A stretch of 64,000 bases of DNA from an uncultured Acidobacteriota bacterium (GCA_964647625.1 CAZYHZ010000009.1:16056-80055), one strand, 5' to 3'; positions 12,115 through 55,212 are shown, counted from the first letter of the stretch. Made by a program: numbers and translations. The notes: generated by a model not told the origin, from the sequence alone.

Positions 12115-12189
12115 GGCGGCGTAGCCAAGTGGTAAGGCAACGGTCTGCAAAACCGTCATTCACCGGTTCAAATCCGGTCGCCGCCTCCA
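12115..12189 (+). tRNA. tRNA-Cys(GCA)
   Basis: Acceptor stem GGCGGCG/CGCCGCC, anticodon arm ACGGT-CTGCAAA-ACCGT, T loop TTCAAAT, encoded CCA. Confidence 0.95.
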
Positions 12190-12226
12190 TTCTCGTCTTG
12201 CGGACCGCGGGGCGGGGCTGAATCGG

Positions 12227-35587: not shown

Positions 35588-37677
35588 GACCCGCTCGCCC
35601 CCGCGGCGGGCGCGGGCGCGGCCTCGGGTTCGGGCACGACGAGCGGCCGTTCGGCTCGGGCGAGCTGCTGACCATCGGACGTGACTGCGATGACGAATCG
35701 ATAGCGGCCCGGGCCCAGCGTCTTCGGCGGGATGAGATCGAGGACCTGCGCGCATCGGTCTCCGGCCATCTCGATGACCGTGGTTCCCACGGGGGTCTCG
35801 GTTTCACCCACCAAGGTTCGCGCCACGGACAGCGGCCGTTTCTGATCCTTGGCACGGCAGACGAGCGCGATGACCGCCGTCGGCTCCTCGGGCCGGAGCA
35901 GATCCCCGTCGCCGATGACGACCGCTCCTTGGGTTTGGGATTGCCCGTTCTTCAGGAACCCGCCGGCGCGCGGCTGGCTCACGGCGATCGGCGCGAGCGT
36001 GACGGGCTCCGCGTCGATCTTCGGCCACGTTCCGTGAACTTCCTTGGAGAGCACGGTGTCCGTTTGCGTCTCGTGGGCGACCGCGACGAGGTCGTAGTCG
36101 CCCGGTGCGAAAGTCATGTCCTTTTCGAACACGACCGGGGTTTCGGGGGTGGTGAGCTGGATCCGCCCGGAGCCGTCTTGCCACACGACGCCCTTGGAGA
36201 CGACGGAGGCGCCGACGTCCCACACGGTCGTCGGGACCTTGCTCCCCCCGAGCGACACCTGGACGCGCGCCTTGAACGAGCCCCCGTCGTACGCGATCGG
36301 CACCACCCCGACCTTCAGGCTCGACGAGGCCGCATCCGGCTGCGTGGATGCCGTCGCGAACGCGGAGAGGAGCCGCCCCGTCAGCCGCGTCGCGTCGCTC
36401 TGAATGACGAGCCGCCCGCGGACGGTCGTCTTGACCTTGCGGTCCGTGACCTTGACGGAGACGGTCAGCGGCTTGTCCTGCGCGAACCCCGCAGGGTCGA
36501 AGCTCAGCAGGTACATGCACGACAGGTCGCCCAGGATCTGTCCCGCCATGCGCGACGGCGAAACGCCGTTCAGGAACGCCCGCCCGCCGGTCTCGGCCGC
36601 GATCGAGGTCATCGTGCCCTGCGAGTCGCGGATCCTCTGCGAGTTGAGCTGCGTCGACGGCGCGTTCCCGGCGATGGTCCCGTTATTCCGCGACTGGGAC
36701 ATCGAGCTTCCGCCGGCGATCCCTTCGCCTTCGACCGTATAGAAGCGGATCCCGAGGCCCGCGGCTTCGTTGATCACCCGGTCGAGCGGAAGCGCCCCCG
36801 TGGCGGCGTCCGTCAAGATCGCATCCGCATCCGCCATGGGTTTCCCGTTCGCATCCTTCGTCCTCGTGTCGTTGAAGAAGGAGAGATAGTGTTCCCCCGC
36901 GTTCTGCCTCATGCTGTCGGCGAAATAGAGAACCGCTTTCGGAGGATCGACGTCGGTCAGACGGCCCAGCACCATGCTCAGGCGGCGAAGCTCTTGCTCC
37001 TGCCGCCAGCGCTCCTCGGCGGCGTAGCGGCGCGCCAGCATCATCGCGAAATCGACTCCGCGATCCATCTCGAGGACGACCTCGTGCAGCCGGTTGTCCT
37101 CCGTCGCCGTATAGACGTCGAACGTCGAGCCGTCGTTCACCAAGGCATCGAGGGCCTTTTCAAGGGCGGCCGCGTCCGCGGTCAGCGGCACGATCGTCTT
37201 GAGCTCGGCGGCAGACGCGACGAGCATCGCGCGATTGCCGCCGGTCATCAGCTTGGGAACGACATCGCGAGCCGCGGCGATCGCGCCCTGCCGTCCGGAT
37301 TGCGTCAGGTGCACCATGTCGAAATAGAAAAGGAACGTTGCCGGGACGGATTTCGGCGCCGCGGACGCAGGCGTTGCCGGCTCGGCCTCGGGAGCGCCTT
37401 TGGCCTTGTGCGCGGGAGGCGGAGGCTGCGCGGCGACGCAGAGATCGTCGACGAACAGCTTCGGCACGATCTTGTCGTTGAGACGGACCTCGAAATCGCC
37501 GGCGGTCAACCCTTCGATCGCGTCTTTGGCGCCCTCGACGGTGACGTCGATCTGCGCCAGCCGCGACGACGCCTTCTCGGTCAGCCCGAGATCGCGCGGG
37601 GGCGGGGAAGGATCGGCCGCCAGGATGAAGCCTGCGACCAGCGCTCCGGCCATCGCGGCAAGGGCGCGGGGTCTCAC
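35584..37677 (-). CDS. Secreted Acidobacterial-type VWA-related protein
   Basis: Signal-like start, IDVTV, FYFD, PKAVLYF, IAAETGG and YLLSF motifs; GTGA overlap start inferred. Confidence 0.7.
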
Positions 37678-38567: not shown

Positions 38568-39368
38568 ATGTCTCACATGCACGAGGTCGACTACAAGATT
38601 TACGGGGACGATCTGCAGTACGTGGAGATCGAGCTCGATCCTGGCGAGGCGGCCGTCGCCGAAGCCGGCGGCATGATGTACATGGAAGACGGCGTCGCCA
38701 TGGAAACCATCTTCGGCGACGGATCGCGCCCGCAAAGCGGCTTCCTGGACGCTTTGGTCGGAGCGGGGAAGCGCCTCCTGACCGGCGAGTCGCTCTTCAT
38801 CACGGCATTTCTGAATCAAGTCTCCGGCAAGAAGAAGGTTGCGTTCGCGGCGCCGTACCCCGGGAAGATCATCCCGGTCAACCTCGCGGAGATCGGCGGA
38901 GAGCTGATCGCTCAGAAGGACGCGTTCCTGTGCGCGGCGAAGGGCGTCAGCCTCGGGATCGCGTTCCAGAAGAAGCTGGGCGTCGGATTCTTCGGCGGAG
39001 AAGGTTTCATCATGGAGCGCCTGCAGGGCGACGGCTGGTGTTTCATGAACGCCGGCGGGACCATCCATGAACGCGTGCTCGCTCCCGGCGAGCTGGTGCG
39101 CGTCGATACCGGCTGCATCGTCGCGTTCGCTCCGAGCGTGTCGTACGACATCGAGATGGTCAGCGGCATCAAGTCGATCCTGTTCGGCGGCGAGGGTCTC
39201 TTCTGGGCGACGCTGCGCGGGCCGGGAAAGGTGTGGCTCCAGTCTCTGCCGCTCTCGCGCATGGCGCAGCGCATCTACGCCGCCGCGCCGCAGGGCGGGG
39301 GACGCCAGCGGGAAGAAGGCTCGCTCTTGGGTGGACTCGGGCGGCTGCTGGACGGCGATAACAGCTAG
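38568..39368 (+). CDS. TIGR00266/AIM24 family protein
   Basis: AEAGGMMYM, GESLF, QKDAFLC, FFGGEGF and GPGKVWLQS motifs; AAGGAGGAG ribosome-binding site. Confidence 0.92.
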   Translation: MSHMHEVDYKIYGDDLQYVEIELDPGEAAVAEAGGMMYMEDGVAMETIFGDGSRPQSGFLDALVGAGKRLLTGESLFITAFLNQVSGKKKVAFAAPYPGKIIPVNLAEIGGELIAQKDAFLCAAKGVSLGIAFQKKLGVGFFGGEGFIMERLQGDGWCFMNAGGTIHERVLAPGELVRVDTGCIVAFAPSVSYDIEMVSGIKSILFGGEGLFWATLRGPGKVWLQSLPLSRMAQRIYAAAPQGGGRQREEGSLLGGLGRLLDGDNS

Positions 39369-39411
39369 GACCTGGCGGCTGGAGTCCGTTTCCGCTCCGA
39401 GTCCGCGTTAC

Positions 39412-39981
39412 TCAATCCGGAAAGCGTTCCGCGTCGAAAATCGATTCGACCGGGATGCTCCATCCCGGCAGCACGTCATCGCCTTCGAGCGTGTCGTCCG
39501 GGCCGAGGACCCGCGGCGCCAGGAGCGTCCGGTACGTCGTGACGCGCCGCCGCTCGGGATCGACGACCCACACGAGCCTGCACCCGGCCGCGAGGTAATC
39601 GGCGACCTTCGTGCGAATCTGATAAGGCCGGTTGGAAGGGGAAAAGATCTCGATCGCAAGATCCGGCGGCCCGTCGATGAAGCGACGGTAGTCGATGCCG
39701 GCGAGCCGCTCTCGCACGACGAACGAGATATCCGGCCCTCGAACCGTGTCCGGATCGCGCGCCAGGACGAAACCGGTCTCGCCGAATACTGCGCCGAGGC
39801 CACGAGGGACGACGAAGTCCTCGAGGAGTCGTTCCAGCTTCCTGCGGACCTGGTCGTGCCACGGAGAGGGAAGCGGCTCCGAGACGAGCCATCCTGCCTC
39901 CAGCTCGTGCCGCTTTTCGTCGTCGGGAAGCACCGCCAGCTCCAATGCGGTCAGCCGCCGACCCTGTTCGTGTCGTTCCAC
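39412..39981 (-). CDS. Uma2 family PD-(D/E)xK endonuclease
   Basis: RHELEAG, PDTVRGPDISF, PDLAIEIFSPS, YLAAG..LVWVVDP and LPGWS motifs; GTG start inferred. Confidence 0.88.
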   Translation of the reverse strand: MERHEQGRRLTALELAVLPDDEKRHELEAGWLVSEPLPSPWHDQVRRKLERLLEDFVVPRGLGAVFGETGFVLARDPDTVRGPDISFVVRERLAGIDYRRFIDGPPDLAIEIFSPSNRPYQIRTKVADYLAAGCRLVWVVDPERRRVTTYRTLLAPRVLGPDDTLEGDDVLPGWSIPVESIFDAERFPD

Positions 39982-40225
39982 GCACGTACGATACGGCGGC
40001 CCACTGGACGCGTCCAGCCGTCGCGACGGTTCCCCGTTGTCGCAATGCAACCCGCTACCGCACGAGCAACGGAACCGTCGATGGGGCCTGGGTCCTCTGA
40101 CATGCGAGGTTCGCCTCAGGCCACCGCGGTGACGGGGTGGTACAAAACGGAAGAGACCAAATCGATCAATGTTTGCGTGGGTCTCCGGAGCCGAAAGCCG
40201 TCCCAGATTTGCGGGGCCGAGGGCG

Positions 40226-40253
40226 GCGGGTTCGATTCCCGCCGCCTCCACCA
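40226..40253 (+). repeat. ssrA: tmRNA-like 3' fragment, att scar copy 1
   Basis: GCGGGTTCGATTCCCGCCGCCTCCACCA gives a T arm, an acceptor strand with U70, A73 and CCA; no matching 5' half upstream. Confidence 0.8.
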
Positions 40254-40486
40254 CACAACTCTTTCTCCTCGCGTCGCTTGCGGCGGGCACGCGTCCGCGT
40301 TGTGCTTCTATCGTGCTCCGCAGTCGGCGCCATGGTTCCCGGCTACCGCGGGAGGCGCGATACGCGCACGACTAATCCAACAAGGGTTCTCGGAAGCGCC
40401 AGGGATCCGAATTAGGGGTGCACAGAGCCCGGCTTGTTCCGATTGCACGCTCGGGCTGAGTAGTTGGAGTGCCGCATTTTCCAATT

Positions 40487-40975
40487 TCATGACGTGCGCT
40501 TCGGATTTGTCGGCAGATGTCTATTGAGAACCAACTTTCCGACAAACGTGATGCCATTCTGATCGAGCTGGAGACGTGCTTTCTCGGTATTGGCGAAATG
40601 GACCCTCCCGGATGCGACCCACAGCCATGCCGCGATGCTTCTGCCCGGTTTCAGATGTTTGCGCAAATGGATTAGGGCGGACCTTCGCTTCGCGATCACC
40701 GTAGAGATCTCATCCTTCTTTGCCGAATGCGGTTCGAGGCCGATCACGGAACGGCTCGGTCCGTGACCGAGCAGGTAGTCCCATCGGTTCTCGTCCGGAT
40801 GCGCCTCACGAAGCGAAGTGTCCAGATTGAGGCTGTCGGCGAAGTCGGATCGGACGCTCTCGTCGATTAGCGCTCGGTGACCGCCTTCCATGGCCATCAG
40901 CCCGTTCATAACGGCTCCGAATAGACCTGATCCATCCACGAGCGCGGAGCGAATTGGCGTGGCCCGGCGCGTCAT
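40487..40975 (-). CDS. Uncharacterised 162 aa protein coupled to the ATPase
   Basis: ATGA overlap with the ATPase stop. LD...RWDY..G...LEPH...K pattern suggests a nuclease-like fold (inference). Confidence 0.75.
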   Translation of the reverse strand: MTRRATPIRSALVDGSGLFGAVMNGLMAMEGGHRALIDESVRSDFADSLNLDTSLREAHPDENRWDYLLGHGPSRSVIGLEPHSAKKDEISTVIAKRRSALIHLRKHLKPGRSIAAWLWVASGRVHFANTEKARLQLDQNGITFVGKLVLNRHLPTNPKRTS

Positions 40976-42117
40976 TCGCCGTGCTCATTCACAGCCGCGC
41001 GAACCGCCTCCCCGAAGCGCGAACTGAAGCCTGTAAGGCCTCCCCAGGCCGCCTCGTTCTCGTCGTCCGATCCTGGGTCTAGGTTTGAGATGTTTTTCGA
41101 CCGAACTCTTCCGTCGCTGTCAAACTTGAGCAGGTGAACGCTGTAGCTCTTGTGAAGCGCGGCTTCGGCTACCTTTTTCATCGACTGTGTTTGTGTTACG
41201 TCGAATCCCTGACACACAAGTTGCCACCGCGCGTTATGTTCCTTGAGTCGTCGCAGCATCCAGATCGCCGTAAGCACATGTGCCGAGTGCGTAGAGAGGA
41301 CCACGCGATAACCGCGCCATAGCAGATCCAGCACGAGCAGGAGGAAAACAGTGAGCGCTTGTGGGTGCAGCCCCATTTCCGGCTCTTCGACGATCACCCA
41401 CTCGATCTCTGGCTGCTTGCGCTTCTTGGTTCTCGGTAGCAGGTGGTAAAGGCCGAGCAACAGGGGTGTAAACTCGCGCTGCCCAGTGGCCCAGGTCATG
41501 AACGGAAGTCCGGCTTTGTCGTGCGTCAGCTTGAGTCGTTTGGCATGTTGTGGATCCAGTTCGAGCGCAATCGATCCCCCATGGAAAACAGCCGAGTCGA
41601 TCAGCTTTCGGTACTCCTGCTTGAGGAGGCGAGGGACGGGGAAGAGCTGATCGCCCCCACGGGCACTGAAGCGGTCGAAGAGGTTTTGGCTGAAGATGCG
41701 AGCGACGACGGGCGTGTCCGACGTTAGTTTCTGAAACGGGGCCGCCCAGCCATCACTAATGAGCATCGAGCGGTGAGCCGGGATGAAGAAGGCTCGCTCC
41801 TTGCCGTTCCCGAGGCGGCTGATGCTCTTGGGTTCGATTTTCGCCCCATCAAGGAGGATCTCAGAGTCGCTTCGCCATGCAGTCCCCATGCCGACGCCGA
41901 AGATGAGGTCGATGAGGACTCCGGGTTCGGCGCGCTGGCCGGCTTCTCGTAGGGCCGAGACGATCTGTTTCCCGTCCATTGCGGTCTTCAGCCACTGAAG
42001 GGCGAGGCTCTTTCCGGTGCCTTGCGCACCCACAATGACAGTCAGGTCTCCGAACTCGAGCTCGGCATCCCCGATCTGCCCGAAGTTGCGAATCGAGAGC
42101 TTCGTGTTCCTCGTCAT
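40972..42117 (-). CDS. ABC-type ATPase (AAA_15/AAA_21-like)
   Basis: IRNFGQI, Walker A GAQGTGKS, IPAHR, signature-like ATGQ, Walker B VIVEEPEMGLHP and H-loop STHS. Confidence 0.9.
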   Translation of the reverse strand: MTRNTKLSIRNFGQIGDAELEFGDLTVIVGAQGTGKSLALQWLKTAMDGKQIVSALREAGQRAEPGVLIDLIFGVGMGTAWRSDSEILLDGAKIEPKSISRLGNGKERAFFIPAHRSMLISDGWAAPFQKLTSDTPVVARIFSQNLFDRFSARGGDQLFPVPRLLKQEYRKLIDSAVFHGGSIALELDPQHAKRLKLTHDKAGLPFMTWATGQREFTPLLLGLYHLLPRTKKRKQPEIEWVIVEEPEMGLHPQALTVFLLLVLDLLWRGYRVVLSTHSAHVLTAIWMLRRLKEHNARWQLVCQGFDVTQTQSMKKVAEAALHKSYSVHLLKFDSDGRVRSKNISNLDPGSDDENEAAWGGLTGFSSRFGEAVRAAVNEHGE

Positions 42118-42540
42118 ACCGCACCTCCACGGATCACATCGAGGTGGTTTCGCAAGAGCGCTTGGATTGGTCTTGTGCCGTCTCAGCCGTGCCCCACGGG
42201 CCGATCCGGTGAGCTTCCGAATTGCGAAGTATACCCCCCAATGTCCATTGGGCGAGAACACACTCCTGGCGCAAGTGAGCCAAGACAATACCTGACACCG
42301 CCGACGGCCGGAACGAGGAAGTCGATGCCGCGAATTGATGGAGTGAAGGATCCTTGGGGTGCGTCCCCGAGTCTTTGTCGAGCGTGGCTCGTGACACCCG
42401 CGTGGTCATCGTGACATTCCGCGTCGCGTGGCGAGCGCGGATCCGCGCCTCCCGCACAGCAACGGTAGGCTTGGATATGTAAAATGAGCGAATGGGATCT
42501 GGTTTCGCCGATCTCGCGCCGCCGCTCCGGTTCGCAGCCA

Positions 42541-45500
42541 ATGAGGGCTACTGAGATTTCTGCGGCCGCGCCCAAATTCCCCGACGCTTCGCACGCGCTG
42601 CATGGGTTTCGCTACCAGCTGCTGCAAACGCTCGGCGCGTGGCTGAACCTGCGGCCGAACGAGGAGCTTTGGATCGAAGTGTCCGAGGATTACGCGGTTT
42701 GCTCAGCGCACCAGTACAACGCTGTGCAGGTCAAGGGCTCACGCGCCGCGTCGGGGCCAACGCCGTACAGCTTGCAATCGAGTGATGTGCGTGCTGCGCT
42801 GCGCCGTTTCTGGACGCGGGCGGAATCTTCATCGCGAGAGCGCCTTACGTTTCTGGCCAATGGCGGCGTGGCGGTCGAACGGGACCATCCTTTTCCTAGG
42901 GGCGGCGGTGGGCTCGACTACTGGACGGCTGCGGCGCGCGGCGCGGACACCGCGCCGTTGCGCGCGGCGTTGTTGGCGTTGTTCGATGGCGAACCTCTCG
43001 GCGTCTGGCTCGCGCAGCAGCCGAGCGATGACGAATTGCGCGCACGGCTCCTGAGGCGCGTGACCTGGGCGCTTTGCGCTGCGAGCACCGACGATCTTTC
43101 CGCGCAGCTGCTCGACCAGATCGGCGCCGTCTACATCGAGCGCGGTTTGCCGGTGACGGCGGCGTCGGCCGGTTGGCATGCGCTGTGTGACCAGGTCTTT
43201 GAGGTGGCATGTCGGTCTGATCCCGCGACGCGACGCTTGACCTCGGTGGATTTGCACCGCGCAATCGAAGACACCCTCGCCGCGCTCAACATCGCAAAGA
43301 GGATGGGCGCTGCCGCGGGTGATGCCGCGGCCTATGTCCAGAGCGTCCTTGTGGGCGAACTCGCCGAAGTGCTGCCCGCGACAACCGCGCGCGCCCAGAC
43401 GATCGCCGCCATCCAATCAACCGTTGGCGCTGAACCGTTAGTGTGGCTGCATGGCGGCCACGGCGTCGGAAAGTCAACGTTGGCGCACCTTCTGGCACGA
43501 CGCTACGGCGGTCGCTGGTTGACCTTGGATCTGCGGCTTGCTCAGGCCGATCGCGGCGGCGCGCTTGCCGCCTGGCGCGAGCTGATGCGCGCCATCACTT
43601 CCAAGGGAATGCCGGACGGTATCGTGCTCGATGATTTCGCCGCCGCCGCCGTTGTTGCGTTGGGCGGCCGTCTGGCCGCACTGACTCAACAAATGGCGAG
43701 CAGGGGCGGGCGCGTAGTCGTCACGTCTCCACAACCGGCTTCACCAGCGCGGTTGGCGGCGCTTGGCGCGACACCGAACGCAAACGTTTCAGCGCCGTAC
43801 TTCACCGACACCGACATCCAAGATCTGATCAGTCGTACACCGTCACCGGAGTCCGCGCAAATCGAGGCCTGGCGCTTGTTCATCCGCATGGCCACGGGCG
43901 GCGGTCACCCGCTGCTGGTGGCGACGAAGGTCGCCAGCCTGCGCGCTCGCGGTTGGCCCGCGAGCGGACTGGCCGAAGACATCGGCAAGACCAGTGAGGC
44001 CATCCAGATCACGCGTGACGAAGCGCGTCGGGCGCTGCTCCGCGAACTCGCCGCGCTCGACCAAGCGCTCTCGCTCGATGTTGGTGCCCTCCTCCGCCGC
44101 ATCGGCGTGGTGTTCGATCGCGTCGATACGGGCCTTGTATCGGTTCTCGCAAAACTGCCGCCTGCCATAGCCAGGGCGTCGGACGCGCTTGCCGTGCTGC
44201 GCGGCAGTTGGCTCGAAGCGTTGCCCGACGGCGACTTGCGCCTGTCGCCCGTCATCTCCGACATCAGTACCGACGTGGCGGCGGAAGATATCCAACGCTG
44301 GTGCCGCGCCGCCGCGGAATACTGGTTGCGTAAGCGGGTGCTCAACGAACGAACCCTGCCGCTCTGTTTCTGGAACGCCTTTATCGGTCATCACGACTGG
44401 GTGCTGATGAAGCTGTGCGAGACGCTGCAGAGCCTCGATCACGAGATCCTGCGTGGAGCGGTCGCTCTTCTTTCGCCGATGACCGCGTTGCGGACAGACG
44501 TGTCGCTCTACGAGCACAACCCCATTGTCGGCGTCAATTTGCGACTGCTCCAGTTCCAGGTGGCGGCAGCGGTCGAATCCGACGGCTCGGGCGCCGACAT
44601 CGCCAAGCGTCTGCTGGTGGAGCTGAGTCAGATCGAAGATCGCGACGTTTACGCGCTGATGACGGCCGTTTCCGCTTCCAAGGTGCTGATGACGCAGACC
44701 GTCCACCTCGCGCCAGAGGACATTGTCGAATGTGCGTTGCGGCTACGCCAGGTCACGCCGCGCGTACAGGAATTGGGCGGCCCAACGCTGAAGCTCCCCC
44801 ACTGTGACATCGCGCGACAGTTCGGGGAAGACGTGGACCCTTCGGACTTTCTATTCGCCAGTTCCCTCTCCAAAAGTCAGGATTCGGCGGGCTTCCTGCG
44901 TACGATTGAAGCGCTCGACGCGATCGGGGCGGATGAGCGTCGCCGTTTCCTCGCCGCCTCCGGCGCGATCTTTGATGGGCTCTCGCTTTTCGTGAACTCC
45001 GGATGGTCCTGTGACCAGCTCGAGGATCGCGAGATGGTGGCCGCGCTCCGATGTTATGAGTGCGCTGCCACGATCGCGGAGCGGTGGGAAGTGGTGGACC
45101 TGAATGTCGAACTGGCGGTAGCACAATCCGTGATCCTGGACGAAGCTCTCAAAGACATGGATCGCGCGCTCGCTATCGTGGAAGCCGCCGTCGCTCGTTT
45201 TGGCCCGCTGCCCGCCCTGGTCAGGCAGAAGGCGAAGGTCCTCGGCCACAACGACCGCGACGCGGAGGCCGCCGATTTGATGATGAGCATCGAGGACACG
45301 GTCGGCGGCAACTCCAAGCTCGAACGCGGTCTTTCATTGCGCGATGGTGGCACGTCGGCCGCGCGGAGCGGGCGCTTTGACATCGCGGCGCGCCTGTTCG
45401 CCAAGGCCATTCAAGCCATCGACGAAAGTGGTGGACACGCGGCGCTCGCTGCGGGCTTGCGCGTCGATCTTGCGATGGCACTCTGGGATTCAAAAGATCG

Positions 45501-46593
45501 CGCAGCGGCGCTGCTCAGACTCGCCGACGCCCTCGATATTGTCGGCACGCTTGATGCTTCCGCATCCCGTCAACACGAGCGCGCGCACCAGTTCGCGCGC
45601 GCTGCGTGCGGACTGTTCTTGAGTGACGTGGGTTCTTTTCCGCTCAACTCCCGGCCAAACATCGCCTATGGCGGCGCCTCGGTTCTGTCGCTCTCGCGTG
45701 AGGAACTCGTCAACGTTGAACTGAAGCCGCTCGCGGACAATTGGCGCATCCTGGCGCTGGTCGAAGCCGAGTGCGATCTCGATGTCGGCATCGATGCGCG
45801 TTCGCGCGCCGCGCAGACAGGGCCGGCGCTTGCGTCCATCGAATCGATGATCGCGTTCGCGCGATACGGCGGCGGACTTATGAGCGATGACCTGGAGGCC
45901 GCGCTTGGCCTGGGCATTCCAGCGACGTCGGCTGCGCGAATGCGCCGCTTGGCTATCGACAAAAACGATGAGCCTGTCCGCGTCGACTTCGACAACGTGA
46001 CGGCGACGCCGCTGGCCGACTTACTCGCCGATCCGGTGTGGCGCGACGCAGTGATGCGGCTTCCGGTTGACATTCTTGTCGCCCGTCGCTTGCAGGGGAA
46101 ATGGTCGCCGGATCTGCCCGATCGCTTGCGCGCGGCCTGCGGAAAAGTGTTCGGCAATGAAGCGGGGATGGACGCCGTGCTAAAGGCGGCCACGGGGCGC
46201 TATGCCATCGGACCAACCGAGCCCCTCAATCATTCGATAGCGGCGGCCGCCTCGCGCACCGACGAGGAACTCGCGATCGATCCATCGATCCGATTCAACC
46301 GCGACATGCTGTTCGTGGGCCATTTGTCTCAAAGCATAGCGCGGCATGCGCTTGAAACGCTGATCGTGCCGGTGCTGCAGCGCGGATGGGCGGACGTGCT
46401 CGCCAACCAACGGTTCCGCTTGCGCGCGCCGACGCGTTGCTGTCCCGTCATCGAAGACGCTATTGCTGCCGTGCCGAAACATGGGCTGCCGGCTGCGGCG
46501 CGGCTGGTTCTAGCGGCGGCAACGGCGGTTGGAGAAAGCCTGCCCGAGAGTTGGGAAACAATGCTCGTTGCCCTCGCGCGGGGATCAATCTGA
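42541..46593 (+). CDS. Cap4-like nuclease / STAND NTPase / helical-repeat protein (Avs-like)
   Basis: GFRYQ..E..EDY..QVK, then GGHGVGKST, IVLDD, VVVTS and GGHPLLV, then a long Ala/Leu-rich helical C-terminus. Start may be 42484. Confidence 0.8.
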   Translation: MRATEISAAAPKFPDASHALHGFRYQLLQTLGAWLNLRPNEELWIEVSEDYAVCSAHQYNAVQVKGSRAASGPTPYSLQSSDVRAALRRFWTRAESSSRERLTFLANGGVAVERDHPFPRGGGGLDYWTAAARGADTAPLRAALLALFDGEPLGVWLAQQPSDDELRARLLRRVTWALCAASTDDLSAQLLDQIGAVYIERGLPVTAASAGWHALCDQVFEVACRSDPATRRLTSVDLHRAIEDTLAALNIAKRMGAAAGDAAAYVQSVLVGELAEVLPATTARAQTIAAIQSTVGAEPLVWLHGGHGVGKSTLAHLLARRYGGRWLTLDLRLAQADRGGALAAWRELMRAITSKGMPDGIVLDDFAAAAVVALGGRLAALTQQMASRGGRVVVTSPQPASPARLAALGATPNANVSAPYFTDTDIQDLISRTPSPESAQIEAWRLFIRMATGGGHPLLVATKVASLRARGWPASGLAEDIGKTSEAIQITRDEARRALLRELAALDQALSLDVGALLRRIGVVFDRVDTGLVSVLAKLPPAIARASDALAVLRGSWLEALPDGDLRLSPVISDISTDVAAEDIQRWCRAAAEYWLRKRVLNERTLPLCFWNAFIGHHDWVLMKLCETLQSLDHEILRGAVALLSPMTALRTDVSLYEHNPIVGVNLRLLQFQVAAAVESDGSGADIAKRLLVELSQIEDRDVYALMTAVSASKVLMTQTVHLAPEDIVECALRLRQVTPRVQELGGPTLKLPHCDIARQFGEDVDPSDFLFASSLSKSQDSAGFLRTIEALDAIGADERRRFLAASGAIFDGLSLFVNSGWSCDQLEDREMVAALRCYECAATIAERWEVVDLNVELAVAQSVILDEALKDMDRALAIVEAAVARFGPLPALVRQKAKVLGHNDRDAEAADLMMSIEDTVGGNSKLERGLSLRDGGTSAARSGRFDIAARLFAKAIQAIDESGGHAALAAGLRVDLAMALWDSKDRAAALLRLADALDIVGTLDASASRQHERAHQFARAACGLFLSDVGSFPLNSRPNIAYGGASVLSLSREELVNVELKPLADNWRILALVEAECDLDVGIDARSRAAQTGPALASIESMIAFARYGGGLMSDDLEAALGLGIPATSAARMRRLAIDKNDEPVRVDFDNVTATPLADLLADPVWRDAVMRLPVDILVARRLQGKWSPDLPDRLRAACGKVFGNEAGMDAVLKAATGRYAIGPTEPLNHSIAAAASRTDEELAIDPSIRFNRDMLFVGHLSQSIARHALETLIVPVLQRGWADVLANQRFRLRAPTRCCPVIEDAIAAVPKHGLPAAARLVLAAATAVGESLPESWETMLVALARGSI

Positions 46594-46806
46594 AGTTGCC
46601 GTGCGGCACGATTGAAACGAGCGAATCATCGTCACGATCGCACGCTGGGTGGGTTCCGGTCGGCTCAGCCGCACCTCGGAATCACGTGCGCCGTCGGGAT
46701 ACACGAGCCTCAGGGAGCGAGGCCTGATGGGAAGGTTGCCGCCATGGAACGCCATGGCGAGCACGCGCTAATATGCTCGGCTCTCGCCCGGCAAGGAGCC
46801 GGTCAT

Positions 46807-48117
46807 ATGGCAGATTGCTTCGCGTTTCTCGACACGAACACTCTTCTCCACTACCGTCGATTCTCGGAAGTCGACTGGCCTTCCGAGCTCTCCAGCCCGA
46901 CGGTTACCATCATCATCTTGCCCACCGTCATTGACGAGCTCGACGCGCTCAAATCGGAGCACCAGCTTAAGCACATCCGCACGCGTGCGAAGAGCCTATG
47001 TCAGCATGTCTTGGAACTGACCGTTGACGGAGACCCGGTGGCGCTCAAGTCGAATGTGCGCCTGCAACTGACACCTGATTCGGCCTCCCCGACAAACCAA
47101 GAAGTCGAATCAGGTGGTGATGACCGCATTCTGTCGGACGTCCAGGAGCACGCCCGCGCGCATCCGGGCGCTCGGCACGTCCTCGTCACTGCCGACACAG
47201 GGCTCACTCTACGAGCCCGACGACGCGCCCTGGAGGTCGTTTCACTTCGCGATGCCCTTCTTCTTCCGGACGAGAGGGACCTACTCGAACGACAAGTACA
47301 AACTCTTCGCGCGCAGCTCGCTGACCTCGAAAATAATCTCCCGAACCTCCATCTGGTCGTCGGGAACAACTCGGACCGGTTCAATTGTGAATTGGACCCC
47401 GACCTCGAACCTACGGCCGGTCTCATCGCGCAGCGAATGGCTGAAGTGCGGGCGAAGTACCCCAAGCTTAAGTCGAGCACCGAATTCGATGGGATAGCGC
47501 TCGACTCGCCGTTCGCCAAGGCGATTGCTGCATTGCAGGCGAATCCATTACACACCGTGCTACCGAAGGACGTCGATCAGTACAACACCGGTTTGGACTC
47601 GTTTTACGTCGATTACGAACGATACTTGCCTGCTCTAATCGAACATGAAAACAATGTGCGCCGGACGGCGCGATTGGAATTAACGCTGCGCAACGACGGC
47701 GGGGCTCCGGCCGAAGACGTCGACATCATGCTGCACCTCCCTGATGGTTTCGAGGTCTTCGATGCCGAGGAGCGGCCCGAGCCACCCCCGGCTCCGAAGC
47801 CGCCGATTCGCCCGAACTCCTTGGCCGAACGCTTCGGTGCTGCGGGGGGGATAGGACTTCGTATCCCTTCGCTAACACACCTAGGTCCACCCCCAAACGT
47901 ATCCGTTCCCACAATCAAGAAGACCAACAGTTACCGAGTTGATTTTCACGTTCGGAACCTCAAGCACGGATTCGCCGTTGCTCTCCGGCCACTCTTCTTG
48001 GCGTTCCCAACAGGCGGCGTCCGCTCGTTCGCGTTCGAATACGCGCTCGCACCTTCCAATCATCCGAAGCCGGCCTGCGGAAAGATCCACGCGCACTGTC
48101 GCCAGCGTTCAACTTAA
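46807..48117 (+). CDS. PIN-domain protein with coiled coil and unknown C-terminal domain
   Basis: FLDTN, VIDELD.LK, DDRIL and LVTAD.GL motifs. Confidence 0.8.
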   Translation: MADCFAFLDTNTLLHYRRFSEVDWPSELSSPTVTIIILPTVIDELDALKSEHQLKHIRTRAKSLCQHVLELTVDGDPVALKSNVRLQLTPDSASPTNQEVESGGDDRILSDVQEHARAHPGARHVLVTADTGLTLRARRRALEVVSLRDALLLPDERDLLERQVQTLRAQLADLENNLPNLHLVVGNNSDRFNCELDPDLEPTAGLIAQRMAEVRAKYPKLKSSTEFDGIALDSPFAKAIAALQANPLHTVLPKDVDQYNTGLDSFYVDYERYLPALIEHENNVRRTARLELTLRNDGGAPAEDVDIMLHLPDGFEVFDAEERPEPPPAPKPPIRPNSLAERFGAAGGIGLRIPSLTHLGPPPNVSVPTIKKTNSYRVDFHVRNLKHGFAVALRPLFLAFPTGGVRSFAFEYALAPSNHPKPACGKIHAHCRQRST

Positions 48118-48240
48118 AGAGTTTCCTCCTCCAGGGTCTTCTGGAACGCTCGTGCGACAGCGAGGATGGCTTTCCTCGCTGCCTCCGGTAGCTCCGGCCA
48201 GACTCCCACGAGTAGTTCCAACGCCTGACTGTTGCCGACC
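48114..48240 (-). other. Short ORF remnant (LVGVWPELPEAARKAIL) next to the att scar
   Basis: Translated in the ORF track. Resembles short helical peptides recalled from att-adjacent DNA; no clear start. Confidence 0.3.
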
Positions 48241-48432
48241 GTGGGTTCCCGCCGTTGTGCTCCTGCTATGCTCCCGCAGCGTCCGGCCCTGGCCCTGAAG
48301 TGTCCGCGCTCCGTCCGACTCTTGCATACCGGGCGAACCGCAACTCCTTCCGCCTGGCCAACTTCTGACCCGTACCGACCGACTTTCGACCCAACCTGTC
48401 CGGCTTTGGCCAACCCTGAATCGAGTGCTGGT

Positions 48433-48460
48433 GCGGGTTCGATTCCCGCCGCCTCCACCA
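48433..48460 (+). repeat. ssrA: tmRNA-like 3' fragment, att scar copy 2
   Basis: Identical to 40226-40253. Confidence 0.8.
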
Positions 48461-48677
48461 CAACAGCTTCGCATCCACCACTTTCGAGAAACGTACTCCC
48501 GGCGGCCCGGCGGCAGCCCACTTTCAACGTCGTTACCGATTACGACCGATACCGGCCATTCTCGGAGATTTCTTGGCGGGGAAATCGGGCGATCCAATTT
48601 CGAAGCGTTGACAGGCCTTGCTCCTGACGGTACACAGCCACCCGCACTTCGGGACCGAACAGGAGCGGGGCAAACGA

Positions 48678-51600
48678 ATGATCGTGACGAGTCGAATCGT
48701 GCGACTCATCGGTCTCACCGTGCTAACGGCGTTGGTCCCGCTGCTCCCGACACCCGCGAGCGCTCAGGCCGAGACCGTCATCGCTTCGGACAACTTCAAT
48801 CGCTCCAATGAGACTCCGTTCGCCAGTACGGGAAACTGGGGTCACGTCATTGCGGGTAACTACCAGGGCACTTCGAGTCTGGTCAGCAATCAAGTGCGAA
48901 GCGCTTCGCAAGAGGGGATCTATTACTGGAAGGGCGCGGGAACATTCGACCCCACGAAGCAGTTCGCGAGAGAGCGGGCCGTGCAAAAGGACGGCGAGCT
49001 CGGGCTCGTCCTCCTGGGTGGACCGGATCAAGCCCTCATGGTCAGCTGGGGTCCGCCCGGCGTCGGCAACACGCTTTACATCTATTGGTACGCGGGGGGT
49101 GCCGCTCAGTCCGTGCTGGCCACCGCGCCCTCGTCTTTGGCCAATGGAGACATCATCGAGGCCGCTCTCCAAGGCGGGTTCATCTACGCGAAGGTCAATG
49201 GAATCATCGTCGCCAAGGTCCCCAATACGACCACTCTGACGTCGGGGCGGCCCGGGTTCATCACGTATCTCGATCCGAATCTGCCGGCTCAGGTCTCCAT
49301 TCTCGACGACTGGTCCGCCGGCGCGCCGGCCGCGTACACGATCGGCGGAACGATCACGGAAAACGCCGCCGGGCTGAGCGGAGTCCTGGTGACCGCCAGT
49401 GACGGGCTCAGCGCGACGGCGACGACCAACGGATCCGGTGCCTACACGATCTCGGGGGTGCCGGCCGGCGCAACCTCCATCGTGCTGACGCCGACGCTGT
49501 CCGGTCACACGATGACGCCGACGTCGCGCGCGGTGGCCGGCCCGGTGAACGCGAACGTGACGGGTCAGAATTTCACGAGCACCCCCGTGACGGGTGTCAC
49601 GCTGACGATCAACACGAGCCACGGCACCGTCACACGGAATCCCGATCTGCCTTCGTATGCGTTCGGGACGAACGTCACGCTGACTCCGGTGCCCGACGCC
49701 GGGTACCAGTTCGCCGGATGGAGCGGCGACGTCCCGGTAGGGCACGAATCCGACAATCCGCTGGTCGTCACGATGGATCAGAACCGGACGATCACCGCCG
49801 GGTTCGTGTCGCCCGGTGTCGTCGCCTTCGATCACTTCGATCGAGCCGACGAGACCCCGCTCACCGTCGGAGGCAACTGGCAGAAGCCGTTCTCGGGAGG
49901 CTCCGCCAATCTCACGAGCAACCACGTCGCGGGCGCGTCGGGCGAAGCACTTTACTACTGGCAAGGCCTCGGCACGTTCGACAACACGCGACAGTACGCG
50001 CGGGCAAGAGTGGTGCAGACGGGCGGGCAGGCGGGTCTGTTGCTGCTCGGCGGTCCCAATCAAGCGATCGCCATCGCGTGGGGTGCCGGGCAGCTCTACA
50101 TCTACTGGTACTCCAACGGAAACTACCAAGCCGAGCTGGCGCGGCAAACTTCCACGCTTCAGGTCGGCGACGAGATCGAAGCCGTGCTCGAGCAAGGAAA
50201 GATCTTTGCGAAGATCAACGGCACCGTCATCAAGAACGTGGCGAATACGACGAGCCTGACCTCCGGTCGGCCGGGGTTTGAAACGTATCTGTCGGGCGGA
50301 GCCATCGACGACTGGGAAGCAGGGACACCGCAGGACTTTTCGATCGGTGGGACGATCACCGAGAATGGGAGTGGGCTGAGCGGCGTGTCGGTGACGGCGA
50401 CCGGCGGATACAGTGGAAACGTGACCACCGGCGTCGACGGCACGTACACGATTGCGGGAGTTCCGTCCGGCGTCACGTCGGTCCTCCTGACCCCCACGCT
50501 GACGGGACATACGATGAGCCCGGTCACGAGATCGGTGACAGGTCCTGCTCTGGGAAACGTCACGGGTCAAGACTTCGCAAGCACGCTGATCACGAACGTG
50601 GCGCTGACCACGACGGCAAACCACGGAACCGTGGCGAGGGATCCGGATCTGGCGGCGTATTCGTACGGCGCGACCGTCACGGTGACGCCGAACCCCGCTC
50701 CGGGTTACCACTTCACCCGCTGGGGTGGCGACGTTCCGCCGGGCGACGAGACGGACAACCCGCTGGTCGTGTCGATGACTCAGGACCGGTCGATCTCGGC
50801 GATCTTCGTATCGTCGGAGGTCCTGGCATCCGATTACTTCGAGCGCCCCGACGAAACGCCCATCGCCGTCACGGGTGACTGGCGGCAGACGTTCTCGGGC
50901 GTGACCGCCGATCTGACGAATCGCCGCGTGACGGGCGGCCCGGGTGACGCGGTGTACTACTGGCAGGGCGCCGGCGCCTTCAGCAACTCGAGGCAGTTCG
51001 CGCGTGCGCGCGTCGCCCAGGCCGGAGGGGAAGTGGGCCTCGTGTTGCTCGGCGGAGCCAACCAGGGGTTCGTACTGACGTGGGCCGGGGGCCAGCTTTA
51101 CTTCTATTGGTATCTGAACGGCACGCATCAAGGGGATCTCCTGATCCTTCCTTCGACGATCGCGACCGGCGACACGATCGAAGCGGTGCTCGATTCCGGG
51201 ACCATCTACGGAAAGGTCAATGGCGTCGACATCGGAAGCCTCGCGAATTCGACGAGCTTGTCGTCCGGGCTCCCGGGGTTCCAGCTGAGGCTCGCCGGTG
51301 GCGCCCTCGACGATTGGGAGGCCGGAACGCTTGCGGTGAGCTGCACGGGCGCACCCAACGGAACGCCCTGCAACGACGGCAACCCGTGCACGTTCAACGA
51401 CGCGTGCACGGGGGGAACGTGCGCGGGAACCCCTGGATCGGCTCCCACGGAGGTTCAAGGCGTCGTCCTCGACGGGCAAACTCCCACGGGCCTGGCTTGG
51501 GCGGCTGCAAGTGGAGCGGTCTATGACGTGGCCTCGGGGGCGCTCTCCGATCTACGCGTCGATGGAACGACGAGCGCAGCGTGCCTGTCGAACGACGGTA

Positions 51601-51749
51601 CGGCCGCCGGCTACGTCGAAAACCGCCCGGACCCGGCGCCGGGTGCCGGCTACTACTACATCGTCCGGGCGCAGAGCGCCTGCGGCTCCGGAACCTACGG
51701 ATTCGCCTCGACCGGTCAGGAGCGCGTGCCGACCGCCGCTTGCCCCTGA
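48678..51749 (+). CDS. Large secreted modular repeat protein
   Basis: Signal peptide; three copies of an (S/F)D.F.R..ETP...DDW.AG module; two carboxypeptidase-regulatory-like and two InlB-B-repeat-like modules; Cys-rich repeat and Cys-containing tail. Confidence 0.85.
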   Translation: MIVTSRIVRLIGLTVLTALVPLLPTPASAQAETVIASDNFNRSNETPFASTGNWGHVIAGNYQGTSSLVSNQVRSASQEGIYYWKGAGTFDPTKQFARERAVQKDGELGLVLLGGPDQALMVSWGPPGVGNTLYIYWYAGGAAQSVLATAPSSLANGDIIEAALQGGFIYAKVNGIIVAKVPNTTTLTSGRPGFITYLDPNLPAQVSILDDWSAGAPAAYTIGGTITENAAGLSGVLVTASDGLSATATTNGSGAYTISGVPAGATSIVLTPTLSGHTMTPTSRAVAGPVNANVTGQNFTSTPVTGVTLTINTSHGTVTRNPDLPSYAFGTNVTLTPVPDAGYQFAGWSGDVPVGHESDNPLVVTMDQNRTITAGFVSPGVVAFDHFDRADETPLTVGGNWQKPFSGGSANLTSNHVAGASGEALYYWQGLGTFDNTRQYARARVVQTGGQAGLLLLGGPNQAIAIAWGAGQLYIYWYSNGNYQAELARQTSTLQVGDEIEAVLEQGKIFAKINGTVIKNVANTTSLTSGRPGFETYLSGGAIDDWEAGTPQDFSIGGTITENGSGLSGVSVTATGGYSGNVTTGVDGTYTIAGVPSGVTSVLLTPTLTGHTMSPVTRSVTGPALGNVTGQDFASTLITNVALTTTANHGTVARDPDLAAYSYGATVTVTPNPAPGYHFTRWGGDVPPGDETDNPLVVSMTQDRSISAIFVSSEVLASDYFERPDETPIAVTGDWRQTFSGVTADLTNRRVTGGPGDAVYYWQGAGAFSNSRQFARARVAQAGGEVGLVLLGGANQGFVLTWAGGQLYFYWYLNGTHQGDLLILPSTIATGDTIEAVLDSGTIYGKVNGVDIGSLANSTSLSSGLPGFQLRLAGGALDDWEAGTLAVSCTGAPNGTPCNDGNPCTFNDACTGGTCAGTPGSAPTEVQGVVLDGQTPTGLAWAAASGAVYDVASGALSDLRVDGTTSAACLSNDGTAAGYVENRPDPAPGAGYYYIVRAQSACGSGTYGFASTGQERVPTAACP

Positions 51750-51774
51750 TCGGTCAACTGATTCGGAGCCCGTT

Positions 51775-51802
51775 GCGGGTTCGATTCCCGCCGCGTCGAG
51801 CA
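51775..51802 (+). repeat. ssrA: Degenerate tmRNA-like 3' fragment, copy 3
   Basis: First 20 nt (GCGGGTTCGATTCCCGCCGC) are identical to copies 1 and 2, then GTCGAGCA replaces CTCCACCA. Confidence 0.65.
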
Positions 51803-52071
51803 CCCCCGCGACCCGAATGTCAATCTGCCGGAGCGTGCATTCCTTCGGCGAAGGAGCGGTCCTCAGGGCCTCGTCACCACTCTGCGCGGTTCGAGTTCAC
51901 CAACGTTCGCTCTAGAACGGGTAGGGCCGCAACATCACTTTCGATAAGCGCGGCTCAAGTACAGCGAGCACGTGCAGCATCATTGCGAGCGCACCTCTAT
52001 CCGCGGGAACCCCCGGTGTGTACATCGGTCATATCCGGCTGCGGGCCACTGCCGGTCGCATGAGGTGCTCC

Positions 52072-55000
52072 ATGAGATGGTCATCCCGGCTGTTCGCGGC
52101 TTCGATCCTCTGCTCCGCTGCGGTCTCCACCGTCCTTGCAGAACTGCCGACATCGCCCGGCGGATTGACGGTCACGGGCCAGGACGGAGGCGTCGTCGAC
52201 CTGCCGCTCCGCCACACCAAAGTCAGCATCGAGGTCACCGCATTCGTTGCGCGAACGACCGTCGAGCAGACCTTCGGCAACCCGTACGGGACGCCGATCG
52301 ACGCGGTCTACACCTTTCCGCTGGGCGATCGTGCGGCCGTCGATGACTTCGAGCTGACGGTCGGCGATCGCACCATTCGTGGCGAGATCCAGCGCTCCGA
52401 GGAGGCCCGCCAGACTTACGAGCGGGCGCGAGCGTCGGGCTACCGTGCGGCGCTCCTCGAGCAGCAGCGGCCCAACATCTTCACCCAGTCCGTCGCGAAC
52501 CTGGAGCCGGGTAAGACGGTCGTCGTTCGGCTTCGGACGGTGGAGACACTCCGGTACGAGCGCGGTGTTTACCAGGTGGCGTTCCCTCTCGTCGTCGCGC
52601 CTCGGTACACGCGCGGCGGATCTTCGGCCGGCGCCGCGGCCTGCGTGCCGGTCCTCCCGCCCGAGTCCCGCTCGGGCCACGACGTCGAGATCGATGCGAC
52701 GATCGACGCCGGCGTTCCGCTTCACGACCTCCGCAGCGCGAGCCATCGGGTCGTCATCGACCACGCGGGAGGCACGTCGGCGCACGTCCGCTTGGCGGAA
52801 GACGACCGGATCCCGAACAAGGACTTCCTCCTGCAATGGAGCGTCGCCTCCGATCGTCCGGCTGTTGGATTCATGGCCCATCGCTCCGGTCTGGATGGTT
52901 TCTTCACGCTCCTCGTCCAGCCCAAAGCGGAGATCGAAGCCCGGGACGCGGCGCCCAAGGAGATCACGCTCGTCGTGGATACGTCCGGGAGCATGTCCGG
53001 CACCCCGCTCGATGCGAGCAAGCGCTTCATCGCGAGGGTGCTGCACGCCTTGGGCCCGCGCGACACGTTCAACATCGTTCGATTCTCCGGAGACAACGAG
53101 GTGTTCTCGAGAGATCCCCTTCCGAACGATCCCGAAGCGATCGATCGGGCCATCGCCTGGGTCAACGCGGCGGAAGGGGGTGGAGGGACCGAGATGCTGG
53201 CGGCGATGCGGGCGGCGTTTGCGCGGCCGGTCGATCCGAACCGCCTGCGGATCGTCGTCTTCCTCACCGACGGTGAAGTAGGAGAGGACGAGGAGATCCT
53301 CCGCGATATCTCCAAGGTTCTCGGTGAAGCGCGAATCTACACGGTCGGAATCGGGACGTCGGTGAATCGGTACCTCCTCGACCGCATGGCCGATCTCGGC
53401 CGCGGCGCCTTCATCGCGATTCGCCCCGACGAGACCGCGGACGACGCGCTCGAGGCGTTCCGGTCGTGGGTCGCCCTTCCCTATCTGACCGACCTCACGG
53501 TCGATTGGGGTGCGCTGCCCGTGGCCGACGTCGCGCCCGATCCCATTCGCGACCTCGGCTCGGGCCAAACGCTCGCCCTGGTCGGACGCTACCTCCAGGC
53601 CGCTGAAGGCGACGTCGTCGTGCGCGGCAAGCTCGGGGGGCACTACTGGGAGCACCGCATTCACGTCGCGCTTCCGGATTCGGAGACGAGACATGCGCCT
53701 CTCGCGGCACTGTGGGCTCGCGGCCGGATCGAAAATCTCCTACGGCCGGCTCCCGGAGCCGCGCCCGATGCGGTCCGGGCCGAGGTGACCTCGCTGGCCA
53801 TCGACTTCCGGCTGTTGTCACCGTTCACCTCGTTCGTCGCCGTCGACGATTCGACCGTCGTGAACGCCGCGGGGACGGCGCCGGTCGTGCGGCAAGCGGT
53901 TCCTCTGCCCGAAGGAATCTCGTTCGAAGGGGTCTTCGGTGCGAAGGGGCCCCCGGCGTTCGCCGTGAGCGGGGGCGGTGGACGGCCCGAGGATCCGGGG
54001 GCCGCAGAGGGCTCCACTCTGAACTCGGGTGGTCTGCGGATCCGCGTCATCGACAACTCGGACAAGTCGGAGGTGATCGGCGCGTTCGTCACCCTCGACA
54101 GCACGAGCAAGCTCGTCGCGAAGACGACCACCGCCACCGACGTCAACGGCACCGCGCTGTTCCCGGTTCTCCGAGCGGGGGGCGGCTATGTCATCACAGT
54201 CATCATGGACGGGTATTCGGGGATGCGGCAGGAGGTCACCGTCGTCAACGCCCAGACCAAGGACGTCCTGTTCGCCCTCGCTCCCGAGCACGTCGAGCTC
54301 GTGAAGGTGATGGCGGACAACAGCGCCACCGTCGATCTCGACCAGAGCCAAACGTCCACCAAGTTCTCCGGGGAGTTCATCGCCGACCTTCCGGTCGCCG
54401 GCCGCTTCGCTCAGAACGTCCTCGCGCTCGCTCCCGGCGTGCAAGACCCCGACGGCGACGGAAACCCGAACGTTGACGGGGCACGCGAGCGCGACTTCAG
54501 GACCCAGGTCGCGGGAGTCGGCAACGTCGATCCGTTGACCGGGACGTTCCTCAACCTGGTGGCCAGCGATTCGATCGAAGACCTGACCACAGTGACCGCG
54601 GGCGCGGGCGCCGAGTTCGGCCGCGCGCAAGGTGGGTTCGCGCAGATCATCCAAAAACAAGGGTCGAACGATTTCGAGGACCTCTCGGAAGACGGCTCGC
54701 AGCTTCGCCAGGACGCATTCCGAGTTCTCGCGGATCTGGCCGACGACGGCCGGCTCTCACCAGCGGACGGCAAGCCCGCTCTCGCGGCGTTGCTCGCGGC
54801 TCAGAACCGCTCGGGGGCCGTCGCGCGCGACACCGTGACGAATGCGATCGCGACCTGGGCGTTCGCGGAAGCGGAGAGGGCGCTACCGGCCGAACCGTGG
54901 ATCGCCTCCGCTCGGGCGAAAGCAGTACGGCAGCTCGCGGCGATTGCGCTTGCCGAGGGTTGGCCGGCTCGGCCGGGCGGCACGCTCGATCACGACGCCA

Positions 55001-55209: not shown

Positions 55210-55212
55210 GCG

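Follow-up and report, generated by a model that had tools for sequence, protein, structure and literature searches.

A stretch of 64,000 nucleotides from an uncultured Acidobacteriota bacterium (GCA_964647625.1 CAZYHZ010000009.1:16056-80055; hereafter the window, with positions counted from its first letter) was found to carry an orphan tandem of two islands, A and B, which are bounded by three direct copies of the 3' end of the transfer-messenger RNA (tmRNA) gene ssrA, contain no integrase, and lie inside a foreign insertion. The three copies are best read as scars left by the recombination of integrative elements directed at the tmRNA 3' end. Rather than a new accretion system, the array is the stranded remains of a type of island array that is already known, and the two islands match the sequence definition of cis-mobilizable elements (CIMEs).

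Identity of the repeats

The first copy (GCGGGTTCGATTCCCGCCGCCTCCACCACA, 40226-40255, plus strand) consists of the T-arm, the 3' acceptor strand and ACCA followed by CA, and forms the attL-type left edge of island A. It was the same as the second copy (48433-48462, plus strand) at 30/30 nucleotides, 28 of which run through the CCA; copy 2 would be the attR of island A and at the same time the attL of island B. In copy 3, the rightmost scar (51775-51803, plus strand), the initial 20 nucleotides were those of copies 1 and 2, and the following 12 contained 4 mismatches, with CGCCTCCACCA of the other copies changed to CGCGTCGAGCA. The T-arm part of this copy is thus perfect and its acceptor/CCA part decayed; the uneven distribution of mismatches (0/20, then 4/12) gave a Fisher p value of 0.014 at a boundary picked post hoc. 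For the repeat 32-mer with up to 3 mismatches, 0.00 matches were expected in shuffled sequence.

The repeat is made up of a T-stem (GCGGG/CCCGC), a T-loop (TTCGATT), a 3' acceptor strand with U70, a discriminator A and CCA. It fits the 3' end of the RF00023 tmRNA consensus, the fragment scoring 33 bits, and Rfam preferred tmRNA over tRNA, which belongs to the same clan. GGAC plus the 28-mer was present in 45 viral contigs, in many of which a tmRNA gene called by ARAGORN, of the standard or the permuted kind, terminated exactly there. Because the 28-mer closes ARAGORN-called tmRNA genes in these contigs, the repeats can be assigned to the tmRNA 3' end as att-type scars, and not to tRNA-Ala. The original prediction of three tmRNA-3' scars was therefore borne out by the RF00023 match and by real tmRNA genes elsewhere that end in the 28-mer, while its alternative, a tRNA-Ala origin, failed in that Rfam and the viral-contig controls both gave tmRNA. 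A direct repeat of the tmRNA 3' end, by which membership among ssrA islands was judged, was present at the distal island boundary.

Permuted (two-piece) tmRNA genes with a common 3' end of the acceptor piece were seen in the IMG/VR contigs L181, L193, L202, L211, L216 and L219, and the tags of these viral tmRNAs include ...AAAAGR.

Absence of ssrA and of integrase genes

The sole ARAGORN call in the 64 kb window was a tRNA-Cys at 12115, with no tmRNA of standard or permuted form. This silence is meaningful because ARAGORN calls tmRNAs with the same 3' end in the control loci. At the gathering threshold, Rfam returned only the tRNA-Cys and a thiamine pyrophosphate (TPP) riboswitch in the window, and no tmRNA. 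Truncation-aware and sensitive scans of 38.5-41.5 kb, 39960-40256, 40200-40700 and 48130-48470 aligned the T-arm and acceptor only, and a truncated tmRNA body to the left of copy 1 or copy 2 was rejected on the truncation-aware cmscan result. ARAGORN, Rfam and local searches gave no intact tmRNA gene as an island boundary in the window.

Pfam scans of all major open reading frames (ORFs) of the 64 kb detected no integrase, recombinase or transposase domain, and showed housekeeping genes flanking the array on either side. No site-specific integrase gene was found inside an island, where non-coding gaps did not exceed 315 nt across the array, and tblastn with two tyrosine integrases adjacent to tmRNA scars gave no match in the window better than E = 0.3. 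The predicted lack of both an intact ssrA and an integrase nearby thus held in four kinds of search (ARAGORN, Rfam, Pfam and tblastn). The same is true of the gap of 43 nt (39369-39411) between the stop of the AIM24 gene (38568-39368), the core gene left of the insertion, and the stop of the Uma2 gene, which had been described as leaving no visible 5' half: no tmRNA body was present to the left of copy 1.

The locus in related genomes

Seven relatives were compared at this locus: a Terriglobia metagenome-assembled genome (MAG) from GTDB (L005, AIM24 77% identical) and six contigs with proteins 86-91% identical (L088, L089, L090, L091, L221 and L222), of which L221 and L222 are short and cover the AIM24/amine-oxidase junction only. 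In 7/7, a distance of 0-44 nt separated AIM24 (77-91% identical) from the convergent amine-oxidase gene that directly follows it, no tRNA or tmRNA was present, and none of the inserted genes of the window was found within reach at the locus. Wherever the contigs L088-L091 extend far enough, their gene order was that of the window for over 10 kb to either side. On the left it comprises HD, TerC, Ddl, Peptidase_Mx, DsbH-thioredoxin, a 700 aa unknown protein, adh_short and AIM24, and on the right the convergent amine oxidase, rubrerythrin, URO-D, acyl-CoA dehydrogenase and a giant CarboxypepD_reg protein. Of 80 GTDB loci, 56 were searched for ssrA in synteny with AIM24 and none had a tmRNA; 1/80 (L005) was syntenic. 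A 697 aa protein (35584-37677, minus strand) without a Pfam domain kept its position in all relatives with sufficiently long contigs; its homologues are 693-701 aa long, and that of the Terriglobia MAG is 43% identical.

Because AIM24 directly meets the amine oxidase in the seven relatives, the 15,844 bp at 39369-55212 can be regarded as a lineage-specific insertion placed exactly between two stop codons, those of the convergent AIM24 (ending at 39368) and amine-oxidase (55213-55215) genes. The inserted genes had a G+C content at third codon positions (GC3) of 0.66-0.82, against 0.84-0.92 in the flanking genes, and the region thus shows both of the marks used for calling an island, absence from the syntenic site in relatives and atypical composition. 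No att-like sequence was found at the outer ends of the insertion, so the Uma2 gene with its spacer and the VIT-VWA gene would not have been brought by recombination at the tmRNA block. On this comparison, the clade probably never had its ssrA here. The proposal that the array was cut away from ssrA thus lacks support for this site, given seven relatives with synteny on both sides and AIM24 abutting the amine oxidase without any tRNA or tmRNA.

Anatomy of the insertion

The leftmost inserted gene encodes a Uma2-family putative endonuclease of 173 aa (39412-39933, minus strand; PF05685, 2.5e-31; PADLOC PDC-S03, 3e-18), a gene call that recurs in independent assemblies. Between it and copy 1 lies a spacer of 292 nt (39934-40225), which resembled neither the tmRNA body in truncated Rfam searches nor the other flanks.

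Island A (40256-48432, 8.2 kb) carries candidate defence cargo, as judged from Pfam, PADLOC and composition, and no integrase. Its first two genes encode a PDC-M56B-like protein of 162 aa (40487-40975, minus strand; PADLOC PDLC04711, 1.1e-19) and a PDC-M56A-like AAA_15/AAA_21 ATPase (40972-42288, minus strand; PDLC04710, 3.2e-115; AAA_15, 5e-18), the coordinates of the latter being those of the longest ORF, with the true start probably near residue 60. The two are adjacent, overlap as ORFs and are co-oriented, which makes the candidate defence pair complete. They are followed by a P-loop NTPase of 1369 aa with TPR and a weak LmuA-like N-terminus (42484-46593, plus strand), which had weak Pfam and PADLOC matches only and may be STAND-like in function, and by a PIN_4-domain protein (46612-48117, plus strand; 436 aa in the source assembly; PF13638, 1.9e-13), which is rare, its closest homologue being 42% identical.

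Island B (48463-51774, 3.3 kb), bounded by copies 2 and 3, contains a single gene for a repeat-rich surface protein of secreted type, 1043 aa long, with Flg_new_2 and CarboxypepD_reg repeats (48618-51749, plus strand; GC3 0.80). To the right of copy 3, the rightmost inserted gene encodes a VIT-VWA-CarboxypepD_reg protein recognized by Pfam (52018-55209, plus strand), whose stop lies 3 nt from that of the amine oxidase. Both islands are bounded by the tmRNA block in the attL/attR arrangement that defines CIMEs at the sequence level, and both are without integration or transfer genes, as CIMEs are. A promoter and terminator scan of the array gave nothing above shuffled expectation.

Island A had a low GC content of 0.59-0.65 and a GC3 of 0.66-0.74, against a native GC3 of 0.84-0.92. 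For the Uma2, island B and VIT-VWA genes the GC3 was 0.79-0.82, which is sub-native yet distinct from island A. Because of this difference from the rest of the insertion, island A looks like a separate, later arrival. Three genes were considered as tracers of origin and set aside. The Uma2 gene with its scar was rejected as a conserved island end (nearest relatives 66% identical, none with a T-arm fragment or scar nearby), the PIN protein was uninformative on the source of island A with its best homologue at 42%, and for the VIT-VWA gene an origin next to the ssrA of a donor, on its downstream side, was rejected (no homologue above 65% identity, and all in unrelated contexts without tmRNA).

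Recombination junctions

In two viral contigs (L094 and L095), an identical 30-mer lies 64 nt downstream of a tyrosine integrase of 391 aa (Arm-DNA-bind_2 and Phage_integrase domains), and the identity block starts at GCGGG, as in the window. Such a start at the 5' strand of the T-stem fits tyrosine integrases that cross over in the T-loop. In the sublocation scheme of Williams, such integrases are said to have the T-loop as their 7 nt overlap and the arms of the T-stem as their core sites. Insertion was also placed in the T-loop in the study of Dehalococcoides islands (PMC3146451).

The left flanks of copies 2 and 3, which are the right ends of the islands, have CTGA(A/T)TCG..AG in common. 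About 17 nt to the left of copy 2 (48416-48432) weakly resemble tmRNA 3' bodies that occur as loose ends in the same metagenomes and have ...CCAACCCTCAATCGAACCCGGAC directly before GCGGG. These flanks give weak evidence of what may be extended attP homology. No tmRNA-like resemblance was seen in the left flank of copy 1, and a scan of the viral contigs for the extended left flank (AATCGA N8 GCGGG...) gave no matches. Among the six flanks, arm-type sites or homology did not rise above shuffled controls, apart from one weak inverted match (copy 2 left, copy 3 right).

The motif CACTTTCRA, noticed post hoc, occurs at 48479-48487, 48519-48527 and 51936-51944 (3 in 64 kb against 0.37 expected), each time on the same strand and at most 160 nt downstream of copy 2 or copy 3. 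These occurrences could be candidate arm-type sites of an integrase, in which case the VIT-VWA segment would be the left end of a further related island.

At copy 1, the GAGGGCG that abuts the T-stem (hairpin 40221-40253) pairs with the 3' acceptor strand at 6/7 positions, including G3-U70. With GGGCG to its left, the copy forms a perfect DNA palindrome of 9 bp around the T-loop and an RNA hairpin of 10 bp (-27.2 kcal/mol, z -2.8), an extension that is absent from copies 2 and 3. This acceptor/T minihelix shape is probably due to chance (about 1%, noticed post hoc). Its formation by an internal deletion of ssrA was rejected: in a covariance model alignment, GGGGCCGA plus 4 nt gained 2.4 bits, and the pairing, a post hoc observation, was judged to be at chance level.

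Because the mismatches of copy 3 number 0/20 in the T-arm against 4/12 beyond it, the sequence suggests that decay of the acceptor part preceded the recombination of island B with its target, so that this target was a scar and not a working ssrA.

Origin of the array

The history that we tentatively favour, while holding it short of probable, is accretion in situ on a stray tmRNA fragment. A short foreign segment would have arrived first, bringing the Uma2 and VIT-VWA genes together with a stray 3' fragment of tmRNA that had decayed beforehand. The intact T-arm of this fragment would then have served as a surrogate attB, at which island B, and later island A, would have entered by site-specific recombination with duplication of the block each time, the integrase coming from a source in trans or from a co-integrated helper that was later excised. 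We infer the order of events, the class of the integrase and its supply in trans. An element that never kept an integrase of its own is favoured because copies 1 and 2 are still identical and island A, with four intact genes, leaves no room for an integrase remnant. The tmRNA-likeness of the left flanks, weak at copies 2 and 3 and lacking at copy 1, was counted for in-situ accretion too. There is precedent for such a course, in that units without an integrase in ssrA arrays have been proposed to be cis-mobilizable (PMC3146451), and a history of accretion and differential excision has been described for CIMEs (PMC5704250).

Several points weigh against accretion in situ. The organism's own ssrA and a helper integrase were not seen within the 64 kb window. 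The intermediate state, with Uma2, fragment and VIT-VWA but no islands, was not found, and no relative exceeded about 90% AIM24 identity. That elements integrated twice at an orphan site and bypassed the true ssrA has to be assumed in addition. The asymmetry of copy 3 consists of four substitutions with a post hoc boundary, and clear arm-type sites common to the flanks were lacking. Finally, the import of a ready-made array would give the same anatomy with fewer site-specific events at the locus.

Under such an import, which we consider doubtful but a serious contender, the array was built downstream of the ssrA of a donor, and a 15.8 kb piece reaching from the right end of an older island with Uma2 to the VIT-VWA gene moved in by illegitimate recombination or with an unrecognised element, with no recombination at the scars in this genome. 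A single event would then suffice at the locus, and both the outer ends of the insertion, which are not att sites, and the GC3 of all inserted genes, which is below native, agree with it. In viral contigs that target tmRNA, the scar has element DNA on its left, and the non-tmRNA sequence left of copy 1 agrees with its being where an 'island 0' ends on the right. Arrays of islands in tandem on the downstream side of ssrA, with units lacking an integrase among them, are documented (PMC3146451). However, the insertion ends just past intact genes (by 43 nt and 3 nt), which is unlikely for a random fragment, and three successive units would all need to be without an integrase. Island A is unlike the other inserted DNA in composition, searches with the Uma2, VIT-VWA and PIN proteins gave no donor-like context, and the asymmetry of copy 3 suggests a previously decayed target. 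With no close relatives and with cargo homologues in uninformative contexts, in-situ accretion and import are not separated by the present data.

A bolder extension of in-situ accretion, in which foreign DNA brought in a stray tmRNA 3' fragment as a horizontally acquired landing pad, and this portable surrogate attB diverts ssrA-specific integrases in trans from ssrA and collects integrase-less defence cassettes at a locus unrelated to the tmRNA gene, with cargo exchange still possible, is unlikely. Slightly more so is an active platform, in which an integrase encoded elsewhere excises, inserts and shuffles islands between the scars as a standing landing pad for defence cargo. The perfect agreement of copies 1 and 2, the intact T-arms of all three copies and the defence-type, integrase-less cargo are in its favour, and cases of helper elements mobilising CIMEs are on record for other systems (PMC5704250). 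Against it stand the decayed acceptor part of copy 3 and the depth and junction evidence, which came from assembled contigs of the source runs (a rock metagenome, study of SRR12313477-79). Depth was about 7x across both islands and the flanks alike in three samples, and at contig level, where rare events escape, no excision junction linked the sequence left of copy 1 to that right of copy 2 or of copy 3, and none closed a circle. At present the array is probably static.

It is very improbable that the array grew from a resident ssrA of which a deletion or rearrangement later took the 5' part together with the integrases. The polarity is the one expected downstream of ssrA, and nothing tmRNA-like is left of copy 1. 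But AIM24 abuts the amine oxidase with no RNA gene in all seven relatives, including the 77% outgroup, the identity block would need to begin on its left exactly where the break occurred, and the loss of the only ssrA would probably be costly.

An assembly artefact, with the contig chimeric or collapsed at the 30 nt repeat and a real ssrA as the true left neighbour of island A, has less chance still. Contigs built at k = 31 from three samples contain adh_short, AIM24, Uma2 and copy 1 and end at 40253/40254, because the block, with its 30 nt, falls one base short of k and is common to many tmRNAs of the community. The depth of the block, which these tmRNAs share, is 160-1250x against about 7x alongside, and with k = 31 the sequences on either side of copies 1 and 2 cannot be phased. 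Against these points, in an independent NCBI contig AIM24 and Uma2 are followed by copy 1 and then by about 46 nt from the left end of island A, though the tail of this contig is error-rich. Further contigs cover 40230-47358 and 46648-52495, the latter with copy 2, island B, copy 3 and the start of the VIT-VWA gene, and one more joins VIT-VWA to the amine oxidase. Depth is uniform, and both outer flanks are syntenic with the locus in the relatives, whereas a chimera would not restore synteny. Misassembly at the repeat, which had been named as a possible undoing of the prediction, was therefore judged unlikely and rejected. In contigs of two runs, 37597 is joined to 38295 via 14 additional bases (TCGGGATAATCCCG), skipping most of adh_short; the shorter side of the joint is 21 nt only, and it may be a spurious match or a related strain.

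Least likely of all is a functional RNA, with copy 1 as part of a permuted tmRNA gene or a minihelix, for although RF04321 pairs CGCCTCC with GGAGGCG at 40352-40358 and the 10 bp acceptor/T minihelix described above includes G3-U70, a permuted tmRNA 3' of copy 1 scored 27.3 bits where 47 is the gathering threshold, the distal strand contributed only 0.7 bit with A3-U70 and no tag frame or coding piece detected, ARAGORN finds permuted tmRNAs with this 3' end elsewhere and none here, the locus is absent from the relatives, and the additional pairing is 4-6 nt, G+C-rich and about 1% by chance, post hoc.

Comparison with known systems

Among known systems, the ssrA islands of Dehalococcoides (McMurdie et al. 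2011, PMC3146451) share with the array the tandem arrangement of islands parted by direct repeats of the tmRNA 3' end, the disruption of synteny, and the presence of units without an integration module, which were proposed to be cis-mobilizable. The Dehalococcoides arrays start at an intact single-copy ssrA, mostly carry serine-recombinase (DsiB) modules and have a 20 bp repeat (PMC3146451), whereas the array in the window has no ssrA, no integrase and a 30 bp repeat and lies in an insertion at an unrelated locus. CIMEs (Pavlovic 2004; Bellanger 2011; both in PMC5704250) are likewise flanked by attL and attR, occur in tandem and have no integration or transfer genes. The history proposed for them, with integration, decay and a newcomer integrating into a resident att site (PMC5704250), is the same as that proposed here. 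Classical CIMEs lie at a genuine target gene near a related functional integrative and conjugative or integrative and mobilizable element, and their cis-mobilisation was shown experimentally (PMC5704250); for the islands described here, in contrast, no helper is visible in the window, and they are known from sequence alone.

The IMG/VR proviruses L094 and L095 share the exact 30 nt block, with identity from GCGGG, and differ in the integrase ending upstream of the scar, as there is none at the three scars of the window. With integrons the array has in common only the abstract idea of cargo units parted by recombination sites. No intI with attI and promoter was found, nor any integrase in the 64 kb, and the units are of 3.3 and 8.2 kb, multi-gene and on both strands, with a tmRNA-derived direct repeat between them and no attC. 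The description of the array as integron-like was accordingly dropped, for want of a resident integrase, attI, attC or promoterless cassette.

Menard and Grossman are said to have reported in 2013 that ICEBs1 integrates at secondary sites when the tRNA-Leu attB is absent. Secondary-site integration of this kind is similar in that a tRNA- or tmRNA-specific element comes to lie at a non-canonical site, where it reportedly tends to be trapped and to decay. However, in its simple form it predicts hybrid att sites at the outer ends, whereas in the window the outer ends are without att and the internal sites are nearly full tmRNA blocks. The established concept that applies to the array is the tandem accretion of integrative and cis-mobilizable elements (PMC5704250; PMC3146451).

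Other features of the window

Elsewhere in the window, a homologue of topoisomerase VI subunit A/Spo11 (5776-6903; TP6A_N, Topo_VI_alpha and Toprim, 7.6e-59), unusual for bacteria, lies among housekeeping genes. The TPP riboswitch (66 bits; 11893-11991, minus strand) is directly upstream of a TonB-dependent receptor gene (9545-11923, minus strand), with a sodium:solute symporter gene downstream, and together these look like a putative thiamine-regulated uptake operon. The tRNA-Cys is followed at once by a high-GC3 ORF of about 380 aa (12115-13327 for the two), which had no Pfam match even at E = 1.

Implications

Island-mapping tools such as Islander start from an intact tRNA or tmRNA gene as the anchor of an island and typically expect an integrase. 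An array with neither is likely to be missed by such tools, even though this one carries a full candidate defence system and further defence-like genes. The case also shows that, where scars are found without the gene, relatives should be examined for an empty site before one concludes that ssrA was rearranged. As nothing more than an imported fossil, the array would be an ordinary case, valuable mainly as a worked example. Should the organism have an ssrA at another place that terminates in GCGGGTTCGATTCCCGCCGCCTCCACCA and adjoins an element with an integrase, the use of the scars in trans would become plausible. And if orphan tmRNA fragments do act as surrogate att sites, part of the turnover of defence islands in poorly studied phyla would be invisible to current tools, and att sites themselves could be acquired horizontally.

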